A DNA stretch of 64,000 nucleotides from Escherichia virus TH57, in the sequence record MT446422.1. The stretch is one strand, 5' to 3'. Position 1 is the first letter of the stretch; the number at the start of each line of letters is the position of its first letter. Made by a program: the position numbers and the translations under genes. The notes under the pieces are model-generated. The model was not told where the DNA came from, ran no database searches, and saw nothing but the letters and a program-made list of their open reading frames with translations. Below are positions 19,010 through 30,282 of this stretch, one piece after another.

Positions 19010-20188
19010 ATGTCTATTGCAGATTTGAAATCCCGTTTGATTAAAGCTTCTACATCCAAAATGACTGCGACTCTTACTAAGTCCAAGTTTTTTAATGATA
19101 AAGATGTAGTTCGTACAAAAATCCCGATGCTGAACATTGCAATCAGCGGTGCACTAGATGGTGGTATGCAGTCAGGTTTGACTATTTTTGCTGGTCCGTC
19201 AAAACACTTTAAATCCAATATGGGTTTAACGATGGTCTCTGCATATATGAACAAATACCCCGAAGCAATCTGTTTGTTCTATGATTCAGAATTTGGTATC
19301 ACAGAAGCCTATCTGCGTGCAATGAAAGTAGACCCGGAGCGTGTTATCCACACACCAATCCAGTCGGTTGAACAATTGAAAGTTGATATGGTTAACCAGC
19401 TTGAAGCAATTGAGCGTGGTGAAAAAGTCATTATCTTTATTGACTCAATCGGTAACATGGCGTCAAAAAAAGAAACAGAAGATGCGATGAACGAAAAAGT
19501 CGTTGGCGATATGACTCGTGCTAAATCCCTGAAATCTCTGTTCCGTATTGTTACCCCATATTTTAGTATCAAGGATATTCCTTGTGTCGCGGTTAACCAT
19601 ACAATCGAGACGATTGAGATGTATAGCAAAACCGTTATGACCGGTGGTACAGGTGTTATGTATTCTGCGGACACCGTATTCATTATCGGCAAACGCCAGA
19701 TTAAAGAAACTGGTAAAGAACTTGAAGGTTTCCAATTTGTTCTGAATGCCGAAAAATCTCGTATGGTCAAAGAGAAAAGTAAATTCTTCATTGATGTAAA
19801 ATTCGATGGTGGTATTGACCCGTATTCTGGCCTGCTTGATATGGCAATGGAAATCGGATTTGTAGTGAAACCGAAAGTTGGTTGGTATAACCGTGAATAT
19901 CTTGATGTTGAGACCGGTGAAATGGTCCGCGAAGAAAAATCATGGCGTGCAAAAGATACTAACTGTACTGAATTCTGGGGCCCGTTGTTTAAGCACGAAC
20001 CTTTCCGTGACGCAATCAAACGCCATTACCAACTGGGTGCAATCGATAGCAATGCTGTTGTTGATGCCGAAGTTGATGCGCTTATTGCCTCCAAGGTTGA
20101 AAAATACTCTGCCCCTGAAGGTAAGGCAAAACCATCTGCGGCAGATATCGAAAACGATTTAGATATGATGGAAGACCTTGATGAATGA
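19010..20188 (+). CDS. uvsX: RecA-like recombinase UvsX
   Basis: 392 aa; Walker A GPSKHFKS; matches recalled T4 UvsX. Confidence 0.95.
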   Translation: MSIADLKSRLIKASTSKMTATLTKSKFFNDKDVVRTKIPMLNIAISGALDGGMQSGLTIFAGPSKHFKSNMGLTMVSAYMNKYPEAICLFYDSEFGITEAYLRAMKVDPERVIHTPIQSVEQLKVDMVNQLEAIERGEKVIIFIDSIGNMASKKETEDAMNEKVVGDMTRAKSLKSLFRIVTPYFSIKDIPCVAVNHTIETIEMYSKTVMTGGTGVMYSADTVFIIGKRQIKETGKELEGFQFVLNAEKSRMVKEKSKFFIDVKFDGGIDPYSGLLDMAMEIGFVVKPKVGWYNREYLDVETGEMVREEKSWRAKDTNCTEFWGPLFKHEPFRDAIKRHYQLGAIDSNAVVDAEVDALIASKVEKYSAPEGKAKPSAADIENDLDMMEDLDE

Positions 20189-20522
20189 TATCGATTTATC
20201 TGATTTAGATAATTTCGAGAAAGATGCGGAGGGAGCTAAGGCTCCTTCTGTGCCTTACTACGAAAAAAGTTTGGAGATTATCCGGCAATCCATGGGAACC
20301 GTACGACAGGAAATTCTGTTATCACTCCCTGATGGGTCCAATCACATTGTGTACGTAACCGGAATTAAAATTGAACCATCTGGAAAAGTTTCCGTTGATT
20401 TCGGCACCCCTTCTGAAGACCGCAAAGCGGAGCTTGCAGTGCATGTAGAAAAGTGTGTTACAATGCAAATACAAGATGAAATTGATAAGATTAAAATGAA
20501 AAAGAGGTGGTGGAAGTGGTAG
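20178..20522 (+). CDS. 40: gp40-like protein (head vertex assembly chaperone position)
   Basis: 114 aa ORF between uvsX and 41; assignment by position and size. Confidence 0.45.
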   Translation: MMNDIDLSDLDNFEKDAEGAKAPSVPYYEKSLEIIRQSMGTVRQEILLSLPDGSNHIVYVTGIKIEPSGKVSVDFGTPSEDRKAELAVHVEKCVTMQIQDEIDKIKMKKRWWKW

Positions 20523-21946
20523 AAACTATTTTATCCCAGCTACTCTTTAACAAGGAATATTTTGTTAAAGTCTGGCCATATCTTAATAACACATATTTTG
20601 AAAAGGGTCCAGCAAAGACCCTTTTTAATACGATTAACGAACACGTAAAAGAATATCAAGCGGTACCAACTAAGACTGCACTTGATATCGCGCTCGACAG
20701 TTCTGACCTTTCTGAAGTCGAATATGAAGGCACAAAGAAACTCTTAGGAGTCCTGGCCGATACTCCAGAAGACCAGGAATGGTTGGTCAAAGAAACCGAG
20801 AAGTATGTACAGAAGTCTGCGATGTTCAATGCCACATCCAGGATTATCGAAATCCAGAGTAATGCCGAACTTCCAAAAGATAAACGTGATAAACGAATCC
20901 CAGATATTGGGGCTATCCCTGACATCATGCGCGATGCATTGTCCATCTGTTTTGACTCTGCTCTGGGGCATGACTGGTTAAACGATTACGAAGCTCGATT
21001 CCAGACTTATCTGAACAAATCGAAGAAGGTTCCGTTCCGTATTAACATCCTGAATAAAATCACGAAGGGTGGAGTTGAGTACGGCACAGAGAACGTTTTA
21101 CTGGCCGGGACAAACGTCGGCAAATCCCTTGGACTTTGTTCGTTAGCGGCTGACTATCTTCAGACTGGTCATAACGTGCTTTATATAAGCATGGAAATGG
21201 CTGAAGAAGTATGTGCCAAACGTATTGATGCCAACTTGTTGGATGTATCTCTGGATGATATTGATGAAGGTCATGTGTCATGGGCAGAATACAAAAGTAA
21301 GATGGAAAAATGGCGTGCTTCCGGGACTCTCGGGACTCTGAAGATAAAACAATATCCAACTGGGGGCGCGCATGCGGATACCTTCCGTGCATTACTGAAC
21401 GAGTACAAACTGAAGCAAGGATTTGTACCGGATGTGATTATTGTTGACTACCTGGCAATCTGCGCAAGCTCAAGACTGAAAACGTTTACCGAAAACAGTT
21501 ACGGCCTGATTAAGATGGTTGCAGAAGAACTTCGTGGTCTGGCGGTCGAGAAAAATGTGGTCCTGTGGACTGCAGCACAGACAACCAGGGGCGCAAACGT
21601 TGCAGCTGAGATTGACATGGCTGACATCGCAGAATCCTTTGGTATTGCTCACACGGCTGACTTTATGTTGGGTGTTGTTGAGACCGAAGAATTCGCTCAA
21701 ATGGGACTGCAGTTAATCAAACAGCTTAAGTCTCGTTATGGCGATAAGAACTACTATAATAAATTCAAGATGGGTGTTAAGAAAGGTAATCAACGCTGGT
21801 ATGAGGTTGATGATGATTCAGCTCCTAAACAAGGCCCTACGGTGAAAGAAGCCACTGGTGAGATGAATCGTCAGGCTGAAATGAATAGACAAACCAGGGT
21901 CAACAGGAGCGACCTGGATGACCTTGCCGCTCAAATGAAATTTTAA
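20507..21946 (+). CDS. 41: replicative DNA helicase gp41 (DnaB-like)
   Basis: 479 aa; Walker A GTNVGKS; hexameric-helicase motifs. Confidence 0.95.
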   Translation: MVEVVETILSQLLFNKEYFVKVWPYLNNTYFEKGPAKTLFNTINEHVKEYQAVPTKTALDIALDSSDLSEVEYEGTKKLLGVLADTPEDQEWLVKETEKYVQKSAMFNATSRIIEIQSNAELPKDKRDKRIPDIGAIPDIMRDALSICFDSALGHDWLNDYEARFQTYLNKSKKVPFRINILNKITKGGVEYGTENVLLAGTNVGKSLGLCSLAADYLQTGHNVLYISMEMAEEVCAKRIDANLLDVSLDDIDEGHVSWAEYKSKMEKWRASGTLGTLKIKQYPTGGAHADTFRALLNEYKLKQGFVPDVIIVDYLAICASSRLKTFTENSYGLIKMVAEELRGLAVEKNVVLWTAAQTTRGANVAAEIDMADIAESFGIAHTADFMLGVVETEEFAQMGLQLIKQLKSRYGDKNYYNKFKMGVKKGNQRWYEVDDDSAPKQGPTVKEATGEMNRQAEMNRQTRVNRSDLDDLAAQMKF

Positions 21947-21958
21947 AATATTTTAAAA

Positions 21959-21978
21959 GGGGCTTACAGCCCCTTTTT
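21959..21978 (+). terminator. rho-independent terminator after gene 41
   Basis: GGGGC ttaca GCCCC followed by TTTTT. Confidence 0.55.
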
Positions 21979-21980
21979 CT

Positions 21981-21991
21981 TATGTTATAAT
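21981..21991 (+). promoter_or_regulatory. -10 element (TATAAT) with conserved leader upstream of ORF 22018
   Basis: TTATAATGACCCTATCAACTACTGGAGAATAAAATG, same leader family as the other cassettes. Confidence 0.4.
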
Positions 21992-22017
21992 GACCCTATC
22001 AACTACTGGAGAATAAA

Positions 22018-22335
22018 ATGAAAACTATTGATTGCAAAGCGGAATACAAAGTTTATTATCATGGCTCAAGCTCTAATGCTGGAATCCAAAATATGCTTTG
22101 CCCTCCTGATGCAACTGGTGTTCTGTCAGAAGTTGGGCGCAAGAAAAATTTAGGGCGTGTGTTTTTTACTGAAGATATTGGTTTGGCCCGTATCTATGCA
22201 GGAAGAGCAGCTCGCTCGTATGGAGGAGAACCCCGTCTTTATCGTGTGATTGCACCTGTTGACGTGGTTTGTTTAAATGATACTAAAGGTGCTACAGTTT
22301 ATCACGCTGACTGGGCCTTCTGTGAGGAAATCTAA
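22018..22335 (+). CDS. hypothetical protein (105 aa) with possible ADP-ribosyltransferase-like signature
   Basis: YHGSSS ... GRVFFTEDIGLARIYA ... CEE pattern is reminiscent of H-Y-E type ART cores; speculative. Confidence 0.45.
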   Translation: MKTIDCKAEYKVYYHGSSSNAGIQNMLCPPDATGVLSEVGRKKNLGRVFFTEDIGLARIYAGRAARSYGGEPRLYRVIAPVDVVCLNDTKGATVYHADWAFCEEI

Positions 22336-22338
22336 ATG
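22323..22338 (+). repeat. 16-nt junction repeat TGAGGAAATCTAAATG (second copy at 22536-22551)
   Basis: Identical 16-mer forms C-terminus (..EEI), stop, RBS and start at two consecutive gene boundaries. Confidence 0.7.
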
Positions 22339-22548
22339 TATAAATTAGAGAACGTAGTGTTTATTGGTTGGTTTGAAAATGGTAATATGTTTACCAAAGA
22401 AACTGCACTAGATGTTAGCGACCAAAATATGATTGAATGGGTCACAGTGCAGTATGCAGAAGTGAATAATGCGCTGGTGAAAGCCTTTGTTAATGACAAT
22501 AAAGTTTTTGAATATGATTATCGTATCCACTTATCTGAGGAAATCTAA
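22336..22548 (+). CDS. hypothetical protein (70 aa), paralog of 22549-22890
   Basis: Shares NALVKAFVNDNK motif with neighbour (NALVEAFVDDK); identical TGAGGAAATCTAAATG junction at both starts. Confidence 0.4.
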   Translation: MYKLENVVFIGWFENGNMFTKETALDVSDQNMIEWVTVQYAEVNNALVKAFVNDNKVFEYDYRIHLSEEI

Positions 22549-22890
22549 ATGGCTTTTAATCCAGAAGACCGCGTAAAAGTAACAATCAAAGTGAGTGCTG
22601 TTGGTGTACCATCTTTTGAACGTTCTAGCATGTTCCACCCAGCAGGTATTCACTGGTATGTCCAGAAGACTGCTGATAACTATAATGCACTGGTTGAAGC
22701 TTTTGTTGATGACAAGCTAATTCATAAAGTAGACATGCGTAAGGGTACTGCATTGCGTAATCTGATTTTGACCGTTGAAGCTCAACTGGTAAATGAAGAA
22801 ATCTGCCTTACTGATATTGAAGCAGCTCTTCATATTGCGCGTGCTGAATATTACAACTTGACTGGTTTTTCAGTTGAAGGCGAAAAATAA
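22549..22890 (+). CDS. hypothetical protein (113 aa)
   Basis: ORF; paralogous segment to 22336-22548. Confidence 0.45.
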   Translation: MAFNPEDRVKVTIKVSAVGVPSFERSSMFHPAGIHWYVQKTADNYNALVEAFVDDKLIHKVDMRKGTALRNLILTVEAQLVNEEICLTDIEAALHIARAEYYNLTGFSVEGEK

Positions 22891-23243: not shown

Positions 23244-23681
23244 ATGATTAACAGAAATTTGGTTATCAAAAAACTTCGCTGTAAAAATCCAAATGCGCAA
23301 GCATACAGAGTGTTTTGGAGCGACGAGATTCAATATCTGGGTTATTTTCTTGTTGACAGTGATAATAGAATTACGTTTGCTCATAAGCTTCTTAACAAAG
23401 AATTAAACCATTGGCAAGAACTTATTGCAGTCAAGTCTAAATTATTTTCATGCAATGCAATGCACCAATTGGTTTATTTTTTCGCTGATGGTATTCCTGA
23501 CAAGGTTGAGTTTGAAGGGTTTGAATTTAAAGACATCAATCCAGACAATGAATTGAATAATGATGTTGTTAATATGGGTATCCCTGGTAAGTACATCAAA
23601 AACAGTCTTTTGAAAATTCTGGAAAATCCTGTTTATTCAGTTGACGACCAAATTTTTAATGCCTTTATGAAGCGAGATTAA
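23244..23681 (+). CDS. hypothetical protein (145 aa)
   Basis: Start at ATG 23244 just after upstream stop; C-terminus DDQIFNAFMKRD shared with next ORF. Confidence 0.45.
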   Translation: MINRNLVIKKLRCKNPNAQAYRVFWSDEIQYLGYFLVDSDNRITFAHKLLNKELNHWQELIAVKSKLFSCNAMHQLVYFFADGIPDKVEFEGFEFKDINPDNELNNDVVNMGIPGKYIKNSLLKILENPVYSVDDQIFNAFMKRD

Positions 23682-24647: not shown

Positions 24648-25676
24648 ATGTCATATATTGATAAAGAATTTGCGGTCAGAGCTTTATCGTATCAACCACG
24701 TTATAGAGAAGTCACCGGGAGCACATTTAAAGCAAACTGTCGTTGTAAGGTTTGCGGGGACTCCCAGAAAGATTCACATAAGGCTCGATTCTGGGCGTAT
24801 ACCAATCCGTCTGATGGTGCGGTTTACGTGAAATGTTTTAACTGTGACTACTCCACGCATATAAGCAAATACATAAAAGAGTTTGAGCCGGATTTGCACC
24901 GGGAATATATGGTTGAGAAGTACAAGGAAAATGCCTTCGGTCGACAACGTAATGAAGTTGCAGAAACTCCGAAAGAACCAGAAAAAACTCCGGTTATTGA
25001 AGAGCTTGCTTTTTGCGAAAGAATCGATACTTTACCAGAAGCACATCCGATAGTTAAGTATGTGAAAAGTCGGTGTATTCCGAGCAATGTTTGGAACCGG
25101 TTATGGTTTACAAACAAATGGCCTGCATTAGTTAACTCCGTTAATCCTGGGACGTATAAGAATGAAACGAATGAACCACGCTTGGTTATTCCTATCTTCA
25201 ACGGCAAAAAAGAAATCGAATCTTTCCAAGGACGAGCTCTTCGCAAAGATGCACCACAAAAATATATCACAATCAAAGCTCACCCAGAAGCTTCCAAAGT
25301 CTATGGCGTAGACAAGATTGATGAGCGCAAGCGCGTGTGGGTAATGGAAGGTCCGATTGATAGTTTGTTTATCCCTAACAGCATTGCGATAACCGGTGGA
25401 ACATTAGCATTGGAAGCCGTTCCTTATGCTGAAACCCGAGTATGGGTAATGGACAACGAGCCAAGACATCCGGATACGATTAAACGTATGAAGAAACTCG
25501 TTGAAGCTGGCGAAGCTGTTATGTTCTGGGACAATGCACCATGGCATACGAAAGACATAAATGAGATGGTTAAATCGGAGGGTGCAACCCCTGAACAAAT
25601 CGAATCATATATGGCCGATAACGTTGCTCAAGGGCTGATGGCGAGAATGCGACTTTCGAAGTACGCAAAAGTTTAG
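24648..25676 (+). CDS. 61: DNA primase gp61
   Basis: 342 aa; N-terminal zinc ribbon (CRCKVCGDS ... CFNC); canonical position after 41. Confidence 0.92.
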   Translation: MSYIDKEFAVRALSYQPRYREVTGSTFKANCRCKVCGDSQKDSHKARFWAYTNPSDGAVYVKCFNCDYSTHISKYIKEFEPDLHREYMVEKYKENAFGRQRNEVAETPKEPEKTPVIEELAFCERIDTLPEAHPIVKYVKSRCIPSNVWNRLWFTNKWPALVNSVNPGTYKNETNEPRLVIPIFNGKKEIESFQGRALRKDAPQKYITIKAHPEASKVYGVDKIDERKRVWVMEGPIDSLFIPNSIAITGGTLALEAVPYAETRVWVMDNEPRHPDTIKRMKKLVEAGEAVMFWDNAPWHTKDINEMVKSEGATPEQIESYMADNVAQGLMARMRLSKYAKV

Positions 25677-29062: not shown

Positions 29063-29623
29063 ATGAACATCATCAAATCTGATACCGAACCCAACCAGTT
29101 AAAATTTAGTGAAATGGAGATAGCTTCATTATTTGAGTGCCGTACAGCAAAGGTTGATAAGACCTTGCATTCAAATGTCAACTCAATCATCAAGTCAAGG
29201 TTATCTATACCCGATACAGTCTTGTATCGTGGGGTAACCCAGCAAGAGATTGATTTATTAGATGAAGCAAAAGAATCAATGCAACCTTTTGAATTTGGAA
29301 GGATAACCTCCTTTACAGAAGACTATGGTATTGCCAGGGATTTTGCTGCAATGGAATATGTATCAAGGACTATCATCAGATTGAATCATACAAAAGCTTT
29401 TTGTTACCATGATGCGATGCGCAAAATTGCGCTTGATGTTCCACTGGAATTCTTCAATACTGCTTCTGGTTCCGAACAGGCGGCAACGTTAAGACGTGAA
29501 GAATATATGGACATGATTGATTCTGAGCTTGAATGGTTTGTTCCAGCTGACCAGAAATTCGTGATAGTTGATGCTGGATTTGTTGGTGATTATTATGTTC
29601 TTGACTGTGTACAAGAGCAATAA
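29063..29623 (+). CDS. ADP-ribosyltransferase, ModA/ModB family
   Basis: R-S-E type ART signature (LYRGV, ITSFTED, SELEWF); canonical position between soc and dda. Confidence 0.55.
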   Translation: MNIIKSDTEPNQLKFSEMEIASLFECRTAKVDKTLHSNVNSIIKSRLSIPDTVLYRGVTQQEIDLLDEAKESMQPFEFGRITSFTEDYGIARDFAAMEYVSRTIIRLNHTKAFCYHDAMRKIALDVPLEFFNTASGSEQAATLRREEYMDMIDSELEWFVPADQKFVIVDAGFVGDYYVLDCVQEQ

Positions 29624-29636
29624 GACACGTTAATAT
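29607..29636 (+). promoter_or_regulatory. early-type promoter cassette (GTGTACA, 18 nt, TAATAT)
   Basis: -35-like element lies in the 3' end of the upstream ART gene; leader CCTATCAACTACTGATGAGGA then ATG 29668. Confidence 0.45.
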
Positions 29637-29667
29637 GTTCCTATCAACTACTGATGAGGATAATAAA

Positions 29668-30282
29668 ATGCTGTACACTGATGATGTTTTGAATGGAATT
29701 ATTGACACTGCTGCTTCTAGTGAGTCTTTTCGTGACCAATGTCAAGCGGAGATTGATGCTCTTTATACAGATGAAGAGCAATCGGTACTCTGGCAGTGTA
29801 TGGAAAATAAACCCGACTTGATTCAAGAAGACTTAACCAGGATTATCCGCAACAATCTGAATACTGCACCGCCTGCGGCATTGTTCCGTGGTATATCAAA
29901 GAAAACTATGGAATACCTGGAAGATTTAAGATATGTTGGTGCGACAATTGAGTTCAACCGTGTAATGAGTTTTTCCAGGGACTGGCAGGTTGCAAGAAAT
30001 TTTGCATCATACAGTTTCTATGGCACAAGGAACATTTTCTGTATAAACAATGCACCATATGCGTATAACTATCAGGAAGCAATCTTCAAAATGATTTGCG
30101 GTGCTCCTCCTGAAGAGTTCAATGGTGCATATCCAGAAGCAACCAGGAAGTCAAACTTGCACCTGGTTAATGATGAAGATGAGTTTATGTTTCCCGCTGG
30201 GACTACGCTCCGCGTAGACTTGATTGAAACACACCCATTGAATAACCTGTATACTGTTTGGCATTTAACTGTTTTGAACTAA
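29668..30282 (+). CDS. ADP-ribosyltransferase, ModA/ModB family (second paralog)
   Basis: ART signature (LFRGI, MSFSRD, DEDEFMF); start at ATG 29668 after the conserved leader. Confidence 0.55.
   Translation: MLYTDDVLNGIIDTAASSESFRDQCQAEIDALYTDEEQSVLWQCMENKPDLIQEDLTRIIRNNLNTAPPAALFRGISKKTMEYLEDLRYVGATIEFNRVMSFSRDWQVARNFASYSFYGTRNIFCINNAPYAYNYQEAIFKMICGAPPEEFNGAYPEATRKSNLHLVNDEDEFMFPAGTTLRVDLIETHPLNNLYTVWHLTVLN

Follow-up and report, generated by a model that had tools for sequence, protein, structure and literature searches.

The question raised by this locus is whether a short open reading frame (ORF) in Escherichia virus TH57 (sequence record MT446422.1) encodes an ADP-ribosyltransferase (ART) and, if so, of what kind. 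The stretch of DNA analysed here, referred to as the window, comprises 64,000 nucleotides of a T4-type phage genome whose nearest relatives are the Gaprivervirus phages EAWsc9, VR20 and SP18 (95–97% nucleotide identity). A first-pass annotation of the window, made from the sequence alone, had noticed a 105-amino acid (aa) protein loosely resembling the H-Y-E type ARTs. We propose that its gene encodes a free-standing, minimal, Arr-related enzyme of the ART fold, which would be expressed early together with dmd, use nicotinamide adenine dinucleotide (NAD+) and transfer a single ADP-ribose to a host-side target; we put the probability of this reading at roughly 0.6. The prediction of an ART is not new here, as it had already been published (Iyer, Burroughs, Anantharaman & Aravind, 2022; PMC9503650) and had entered some GenBank records.

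The ORF lies on the + strand at 22018–22335, with its ATG at 22018 and a TAA stop codon at 22333–22335. Read from the sequence, its position, its length and the strings quoted in the first-pass annotation were all as described there: YHGSSS corresponds to residues 14–19, GRVFFTEDIGLARIYAGRAARSYG to residues 46–69 and CEE to residues 102–104. The whole of the product aligns with PHROG 2110 (‘unknown function’; E 1.3e-58). The gene was found by tblastn in 609 phage records, at identities from 100% down to approximately 35%, and the hosts of these phages include Escherichia, Klebsiella, Acinetobacter, Aeromonas, Enterobacter and Vibrio as well as other genera. There are 115 close clusters of the protein in the protein database, and 244 of 1.84 billion cluster representatives were recovered at E ≤ 1e-3 when these were scanned exhaustively with HMMER. 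The ORF is a real, conserved gene and not a chance ORF; on the strength of the reading frame, its homologues, the predicted fold and profile searches, we annotate it as the coding sequence of a putative minimal, Arr-related ART-fold protein (PHROG 2110).

GenBank labels of the homologues are inconsistent. Most are ‘hypothetical protein’ and some are ‘putative ADP-ribosyl transferase’ or ‘rifampin ADP-ribosyl transferase’; records MW233709 (UPEC01), PP556864 (KLB25) and MN648195 (Konradin) are examples of this inconsistency. A further label, ‘clamp loaded subunit DNA polymerase’, is clearly wrong.

Membership of the ART superfamily is supported firstly by structure prediction. AlphaFold2, supplied with an alignment of 37 close homologues (A1), returned a model with a mean predicted local distance difference test (pLDDT) score of 87.5 and a predicted template modelling (pTM) score of 0.78, in which strands at residues 13–18, 48–51, 72–78, 84–87, 94–97 and 100–104 are accompanied by a helix at 54–68. 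The first-pass annotation had named a fold unrelated to the ART superfamily as an outcome that would speak against its reading; the predicted structure gives the ART fold, with its split beta-sheet. KptA/Tpt1 and Arr ranked first when the model was compared with the PDB by Foldseek, and the full range of matches takes in Tpt1, Arr, AcrF11, diphtheria toxin, OspC3, Rhs Tre toxins, PARPs, DarT, and pertussis-like and RES toxins. In BFVD, the top match outside the family itself comes from a phage and goes by the name ‘Rifampin ADP-ribosyl transferase’. Fold and profiles together support the 105-aa protein as a very small predicted member of the superfamily, whose 105 residues put it with the smallest ART domains.

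Profile comparisons point to Arr. The alignment was broadened to 47 sequences (A2) with distant members that the HMMER scan had turned up, and only after these members had been added did the link become visible. Against the PDB, the A2 profile matched M. smegmatis Arr (2HW2; E 1.4e-4) and Arr-2 (E 2.6e-3). The Pfam model Arr-ms (PF12120) was matched by 19 of the 47 A2 members, many of them above the gathering score and the best at E 1.4e-10, while no other ART family in Pfam was matched by any of the 47. An Arr profile of 141 columns, built from collected genuine Arr sequences, was then aligned with the family profile using hhalign, which gave a probability of 96.3% (E 2e-9) over 73 columns and joined residues 7–85 of the window protein to Arr residues 12–84. 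This alignment pairs H15 with Arr H19; E38, G40, R41 and N44 with Arr E40, G42, R43 and N46; and F49 with Arr Y49. By these comparisons the 105-aa protein appears homologous to Arr/PF12120 but to fall outside that family as it is now modelled. The suggestion that the window holds a third ART-fold gene was thus supported, both by the fold and by the profile links to Arr.

Conservation across 136 sequences (37 T4-like and 99 distant domain sequences) indicates which residues may form the active site; they were assigned to the pocket by alignment and topology, and not by three-dimensional superposition. In the N-terminal half the conserved positions are Y14, H15, G16, [ST]17, P29, P30, [TS]33, S37, E38, G40, R41, K42, K43, N44 and L45, followed in the remainder by [KR]47, V48, F49, T51, D53, A57, Y60, A61, [RK]63, G69, G70, G91 and V94. 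Three segments of the + strand stand out. The first, Y14-H15-G16-S17-S18-S19 (22057–22074), contains the putative strand-1 NAD motif H-G-[ST], with H15 and G16 present in all 136 sequences. The second, S37-E38-V39-G40-R41-K42-K43-N44-L45 (22126–22152), forms the loop with the strongest conservation in the family (E38 in 131 and R41 in 133 of 136). The third runs from V48-F49-F50-T51 in strand 2 to Y60 in the next helix (22159–22197), where F49 is kept in 134 sequences and Y60 in every one.

Pairs of tyrosines stack on the nicotinamide in diphtheria toxin (Y54/Y65) and PARP1 (Y896/Y907). In the 105-aa protein F49 and Y60 are 11 residues apart; by analogy, F49 and Y60 may flank the nicotinamide, with Y60 fitting the second stacking tyrosine of those enzymes. 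The motif reading of the first-pass annotation therefore held in part. Its H-G-S element stands, H15 being the equivalent of Arr H19, and the segment it quoted as the source of the tyrosine does contain the invariant Y60, although the strand-2 aromatic residue is F49 and not a tyrosine.

The C-terminal CEE did not survive as the source of a catalytic glutamate. C102-E103-E104 (22321–22329, + strand) lies in the last strand, its conservation is confined to a subgroup, and it partly reflects an overlap with the Shine–Dalgarno sequence of dmd, GAGGAA, whose letters are the codons of E103 and E104. E103 is kept in 35 of the 37 T4-like sequences and is absent or gapped in most distant members, and the tail reads C-E-P-I where no coupled gene follows. 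E104 is thus explained by the ribosome-binding site of dmd, whereas E103 is a genuine subgroup-specific residue. The sole acidic residue conserved family-wide is E38, which is a candidate catalytic residue. The protein appears to have the NAD-binding half of the ART signature without the classical H-Y-E triad, and the alignments and model place it nearer the Arr/Tpt1 kind than a classical H-Y-E enzyme.

Several observations weigh against the proposed reading, and are set out here with the main alternatives. Searched on its own, the 105-aa protein had no match in Pfam or NCBIfam (E ≤ 10), in PADLOC (E ≤ 1) or, by phmmer, in the PDB, and the A1 profile of close homologues had no match in the PDB either, so that the ART assignment of the window protein draws on a predicted structure and on the broader profiles. 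A literature search found no experimental paper on this ART family. The empty single-sequence searches of Pfam, NCBIfam and the PDB are what might be expected if the motif had arisen by chance in a protein unrelated to ARTs. However, independent structural and profile evidence agrees on the superfamily and on which families are nearest, and this explanation, to which we assign a negligible probability, can be considered effectively refuted.

The remaining points against concern the residues that a classical enzyme would need. The hhalign alignment ends one residue before the catalytic D84 of Arr, which belongs to the invariant Arr motif E-D-D-P-N, and by extension D84 would correspond to L86. 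At the classical strand-2 Tyr/His position, F49 is Phe in 134 of 136 sequences (Tyr in two), an aromatic residue lacking the hydroxyl. In diphtheria toxin and PARP1 the catalytic Glu opens the penultimate strand; secondary structure and topology suggest that T93 (22294–22296, + strand) occupies this canonical Glu slot here, and this position is T or S in the T4-like group and E in 18 of the 99 distant members. Position 84 is Glu in 53 of the 99 distant members and Val here.

These residues bear on whether the gene could be a true Arr orthologue that inactivates rifamycins. Arr is the nearest sequence family, the label ‘rifampin ADP-ribosyl transferase’ appears in PP556864 and in a BFVD entry, and T4-type phages rely on the rifampicin-sensitive RNA polymerase of the host. 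Nevertheless, of the Arr H19-Y49-D84 triad only the His is present, the Tyr being replaced by F49 and D84 having no counterpart. Relatives align to positions 1–67 of the 99 in the Arr-ms model, and the C-terminal third of Arr, from E-D-D-P-N onward, has no counterpart in the 105-aa family. Structures of Arr in the PDB include 2HW2, 9IAF and 9IBA, and the Arr chain there is also longer, at 143 aa compared with 105 aa here. In contrast to Arr, the 105-aa protein is phage-encoded and appears to have early-type expression, and nothing suggests a rifamycin substrate. Orthology to Arr was rejected on the end of the hhalign alignment before the D84 motif, and we consider it highly improbable; by its profiles, the family is a relative of Arr and not an orthologue.

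The same residues allow for an ART fold that transfers nothing, acting as a sponge or sensor that binds NAD+ or ADP-ribose, or as a simple NAD+ glycohydrolase. The NAD-site residues are conserved and yet the canonical Glu and Arr D84 are absent, and so small a protein offers little surface for substrate recognition. On the other hand, ARTs without the Glu can be active, as Tpt1 and the H-Y-I PARPs are, while E38 and R41 are conserved well beyond the needs of binding. The domain is, moreover, positioned as an enzymatic effector would be, at the C-terminal ends of polyvalent proteins. We therefore regard a non-transferring role as distinctly unlikely.

Under the reading that we prefer, that of an active minimal ART, NAD+ would be bound via H15-G16-S17, F49, Y60 and the loop S37-E38-x-G-R41-K-K-N44. 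With T93 in the Glu slot and Arr D84 missing, transfer would have to do without a classical Glu or make use of E38. It could thus proceed as in Tpt1, which has a phosphate acceptor, or as in the H-Y-hydrophobic PARPs, which are substrate-assisted, or it could depend on E38 itself. By analogy, the mechanism would be most like that of these Glu-less ARTs. A single ADP-ribose would then be passed to a host or infection-specific target, in an accessory host-takeover or counter-defence role. NAD+ binding, catalysis and a host-directed target are all points that we infer from the conserved residues, the predicted fold and the contexts described below.

The likeness to Tpt1 can be taken further, and the protein viewed as a stand-alone NAD+ lobe of Tpt1/KptA that ADP-ribosylates the 2’-, 3’- or 5’-phosphate ends of nucleic acids, and so processes or marks RNAs cut by host RNases. 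Compared with the C-lobe of Tpt1/KptA (9LD3, 7KW9, 8TFI), however, the 105-aa protein is without the N-terminal RNA-binding lobe, and its counterpart of the second His in the Tpt1 active-site pattern H-H-h is Phe. In Tpt1, the Arg-His-Arg part of the catalytic Arg-His-Arg-Arg tetrad resides in the N-lobe. None of the 47 A2 members matched the Tpt1 Pfam model at E ≤ 0.01, and the sequence affinity is instead to Arr. The fusions and neighbourhoods behind a Tpt1-like reading are few and could be coincidence, and overall it appears unlikely. A more specific form of it, in which a Glu-less, single-lobe ART made early with Dmd would cap, mark or rescue transcripts and tRNAs hit by host HEPN RNases such as RnlA and LsoA, via ADP-ribosylation of RNA phosphate ends, is a conjecture that we hold to be rather improbable. 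If true, phages would have a new class of nucleic-acid ADP-ribosylation, which hundreds of T4-like phages would encode and others would inject within polyvalent proteins.

The company that the domain keeps in other proteins favours a host-directed enzyme. Of the 147 domain representatives, 90 stand alone (≤160 aa); the other 57 are longer, and 11 of these exceed 1000 aa. The domain is often found at the extreme C-terminus of, or embedded within, giant proteins of up to 3924 aa, with fusion partners that include ART-PolyVal, Nudix, 2H phosphoesterase/Acb1-like, Toprim, GNAT, CHAP, DUF7178 and lambda-type portal domains. Phage effectors of the polyvalent or virion-packaged sort are built in this way (Iyer et al., 2022; PMC9503650), and the polyvalent and portal fusions suggest that the domain acts on the host immediately after injection. 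By analogy, this supports a role as a host-directed enzymatic effector which, in the T4-like phages, would be supplied from a separate early gene.

Some of the metagenomic proteins have compositions that deserve mention. In P0148 the domain occurs together with a lambda-type portal and a 2H/Acb1-like phosphoesterase, and in P0145 with ART-PolyVal and Nudix. P0130, P0131 and P0193 join the domain to a second, different ART (ART-PolyVal); two unrelated ART modules in one polypeptide are unusual.

The genomic setting suggests early expression. The local order is uvsX (19010–20188), a gene 40 homologue, the gene 41 helicase (20507–21946), the ART ORF, dmd, a Dmd-like gene and spackle, with primase gene 61 (24648–25676) farther downstream of spackle. 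Gene 41 is followed on the + strand by a hairpin (21955–21977) with a G+C-rich stem of 10 pairs, five of them G-C, a loop of 3 nt and a T-rich tail, which looks like an intrinsic terminator; the exact hairpin is found as a single copy in the window. On the same strand, a putative early-type sigma-70 promoter (21963–21991), CTTACA-17 nt-TATAAT with an extended -10 TG, matches 10 of 12 consensus positions and is the best in the scanned region. Its -35 element sits in the loop of the hairpin. The hairpin and promoter (21955–21991) together resemble the ‘promoter-early stem-loop’ cassettes that reportedly flank shuffled accessory genes in T4-type genomes. To judge from these signals, the promoter would drive the ART-dmd-Dmd-like cluster and confer early-type expression, and the ART gene would be transcribed with dmd at the start of infection. 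A Shine–Dalgarno sequence, GGAG (22008–22011, + strand), can be recognised 6 nt 5’ of the ART ATG.

The ATG of dmd (22336–22548, + strand) abuts the ART stop codon. The dmd product, an antitoxin against the host RNases RnlA and LsoA, was identified by its match to Pfam Dmd (E 3.3e-20) and its 57% identity to T4 Dmd, and the gene is probably co-transcribed and translationally coupled with the ART gene. It is followed by a gene for a 113-aa protein with a C-terminal extension (22549–22890, + strand), which matches PHROG 23762 (unknown function; E 1.9e-64). The N-terminal half of this protein has weak Dmd matches (Pfam, E 1.7e-3; PHROG 2102, E 8.8e-6), suggesting a diverged paralogue of Dmd placed in tandem with it, which might neutralise a different host RNase toxin. 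Its gene occupies the place of T4 61.4.

The two junctions within this cluster are identical. The same 16-nt sequence, TGAGGAAATCTAAATG, containing a Shine–Dalgarno sequence, a stop codon and a start codon, lies at 22323–22338 between ART and dmd and at 22536–22551 between dmd and the Dmd-like gene, giving two occurrences in the window where 0.03 would be expected. The shared junction is the reason that ART and Dmd both end in -EEI. Its role may be that of a translational-coupling cassette, or it may be a scar left by recombination during gene shuffling.

This arrangement has been described before. Iyer et al. (2022; PMC9503650) reported a ‘p0068-family’ ART adjoining Dmd in phages of Escherichia, Shigella and Salmonella, assigned this family to the H-Y-[EDQ] clade, and proposed that p0068-like ART and Dmd form a type II toxin–antitoxin (TA) pair in which Dmd neutralises the ART. 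From the published description, the locus in TH57 matches p0068-like plus dmd, and the family is almost certainly the same one. The name p0068 appeared in no other ART paper searched, and the locus tags of Acj61 and other phages gave no hint of its origin. Our results differ from that account in three respects: the affinity found here is to Arr and Tpt1, the canonical slot is without a conserved E, D or Q, and the linkage to Dmd is not conserved.

The last of these differences bears directly on whether the ART is the toxin of a phage type II TA pair, with the adjacent Dmd as antitoxin. The gene order is exactly as published, the dmd ATG comes directly after the stop codon of the ART gene, the last ART codons double as the dmd Shine–Dalgarno sequence, and a second Dmd-like gene comes next. 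In T4, however, dmd sits in the corresponding place following gene 41 and is directly preceded by an early promoter of that kind (GTTTACA-17-TATAGT), with no ORF between gene 41 and dmd. A Dmd homologue lies within 3 kb in 10 of 66 ART loci from IMG/VR, all of them among the closest relatives, and loci at 79–88% identity are already without it. The downstream neighbour belongs to many unrelated clusters (small membrane proteins, lipoproteins, a GIY-YIG-like ORF) and is missing altogether in 11 loci, and no conserved partner such as an immunity protein or a Macro or ARH domain was found next to the ART among 70 loci. Finally, the established partners of Dmd are the host RNases RnlA and LsoA. 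In our view it is very doubtful that the ART and Dmd form such a pair.

Since T4 has dmd without an ART at the same site, the adjacency looks like the result of an insertion of the ART gene, and our best reading is that the gene entered an early hyperplastic region ahead of a resident dmd. The absence of the gene from the equivalent site in T4 also means that it is accessory and not core. Consistent with this, its position and neighbours differ between genera, and in RB16, Konradin, phiAS4 and a Vibrio phage it lies in wholly different regions. In Pseudotevenvirus and Slopekvirus phages, exemplified by RB16 and Klebsiella phage KLB25 respectively, the gene is approximately 1.4 kb upstream of, and codirectional with, the RNA ligase 2 gene (rnlB), and an overlapping small transmembrane ORF is next to it in place of dmd. 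Whether this proximity to rnlB has to do with RNA repair or is incidental, either is conceivable.

Beyond spackle, a 145-aa ORF (23244–23681, + strand) in roughly the position of T4 61.2 matches PHROG 8539 (unknown function). Its counterpart in the near-identical EAWsc9 is labelled ‘serine/threonine protein kinase’ in the annotation of that phage.

The ARTs by which T4-type phages are best known are Alt, ModA and ModB of T4, which serve host takeover. The window encodes predicted enzymes of this sort, of the R-S-E type, as well: the two adjacent Mod-type genes to which the first-pass annotation had compared the 105-aa ORF (29063–29623 and 29635–30282, both on the + strand) match PHROG 832, ‘RNA polymerase ADP-ribosylase’, at E 9e-28 and 2e-38 respectively, in agreement with that annotation. 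The 105-aa protein has no match to PHROG 832, only to PHROG 2110. T4 Alt and Mod belong to the R-S-E clade and are much larger, whereas the 105-aa protein has a His in strand 1 and not an Arg. In its lifestyle it is closer to AcrF11 (6KYF), a small phage anti-CRISPR ART that ADP-ribosylates Cas8f; no sequence relationship to AcrF11 was detected, however, and the target and mechanism of AcrF11 are not transferable. Defining features of Arr, Tpt1 and the Mod/Alt R-S-E clade are all missing from the 105-aa protein, and so are those of a conserved TA pair. The T4-like branch is without coverage in Pfam, and PHROGs holds no annotation for the family. A HIDEN-SEQ preprint deals with Alt/ModA and dmd and not with the 105-aa gene.

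T4-type phages are the classic model of viral ADP-ribosylation, through Alt, ModA and ModB; this 105-aa gene would add a fourth, evolutionarily distinct type of ART to that repertoire. It is absent from T4 and present in some 600 of its sequenced relatives, including therapeutic Klebsiella and Acinetobacter phages. This gives the existing labels some practical weight, as ‘rifampin ADP-ribosyl transferase’ could be misread as an antibiotic-resistance gene; because neither the catalytic Asp nor the C-terminal third of Arr is aligned, the rifampin label on therapeutic-phage genomes is not supported. The small size and atypical active site of the protein make it a tractable target in which a new ADP-ribosylation substrate, or a new counter-defence mechanism, may be found.
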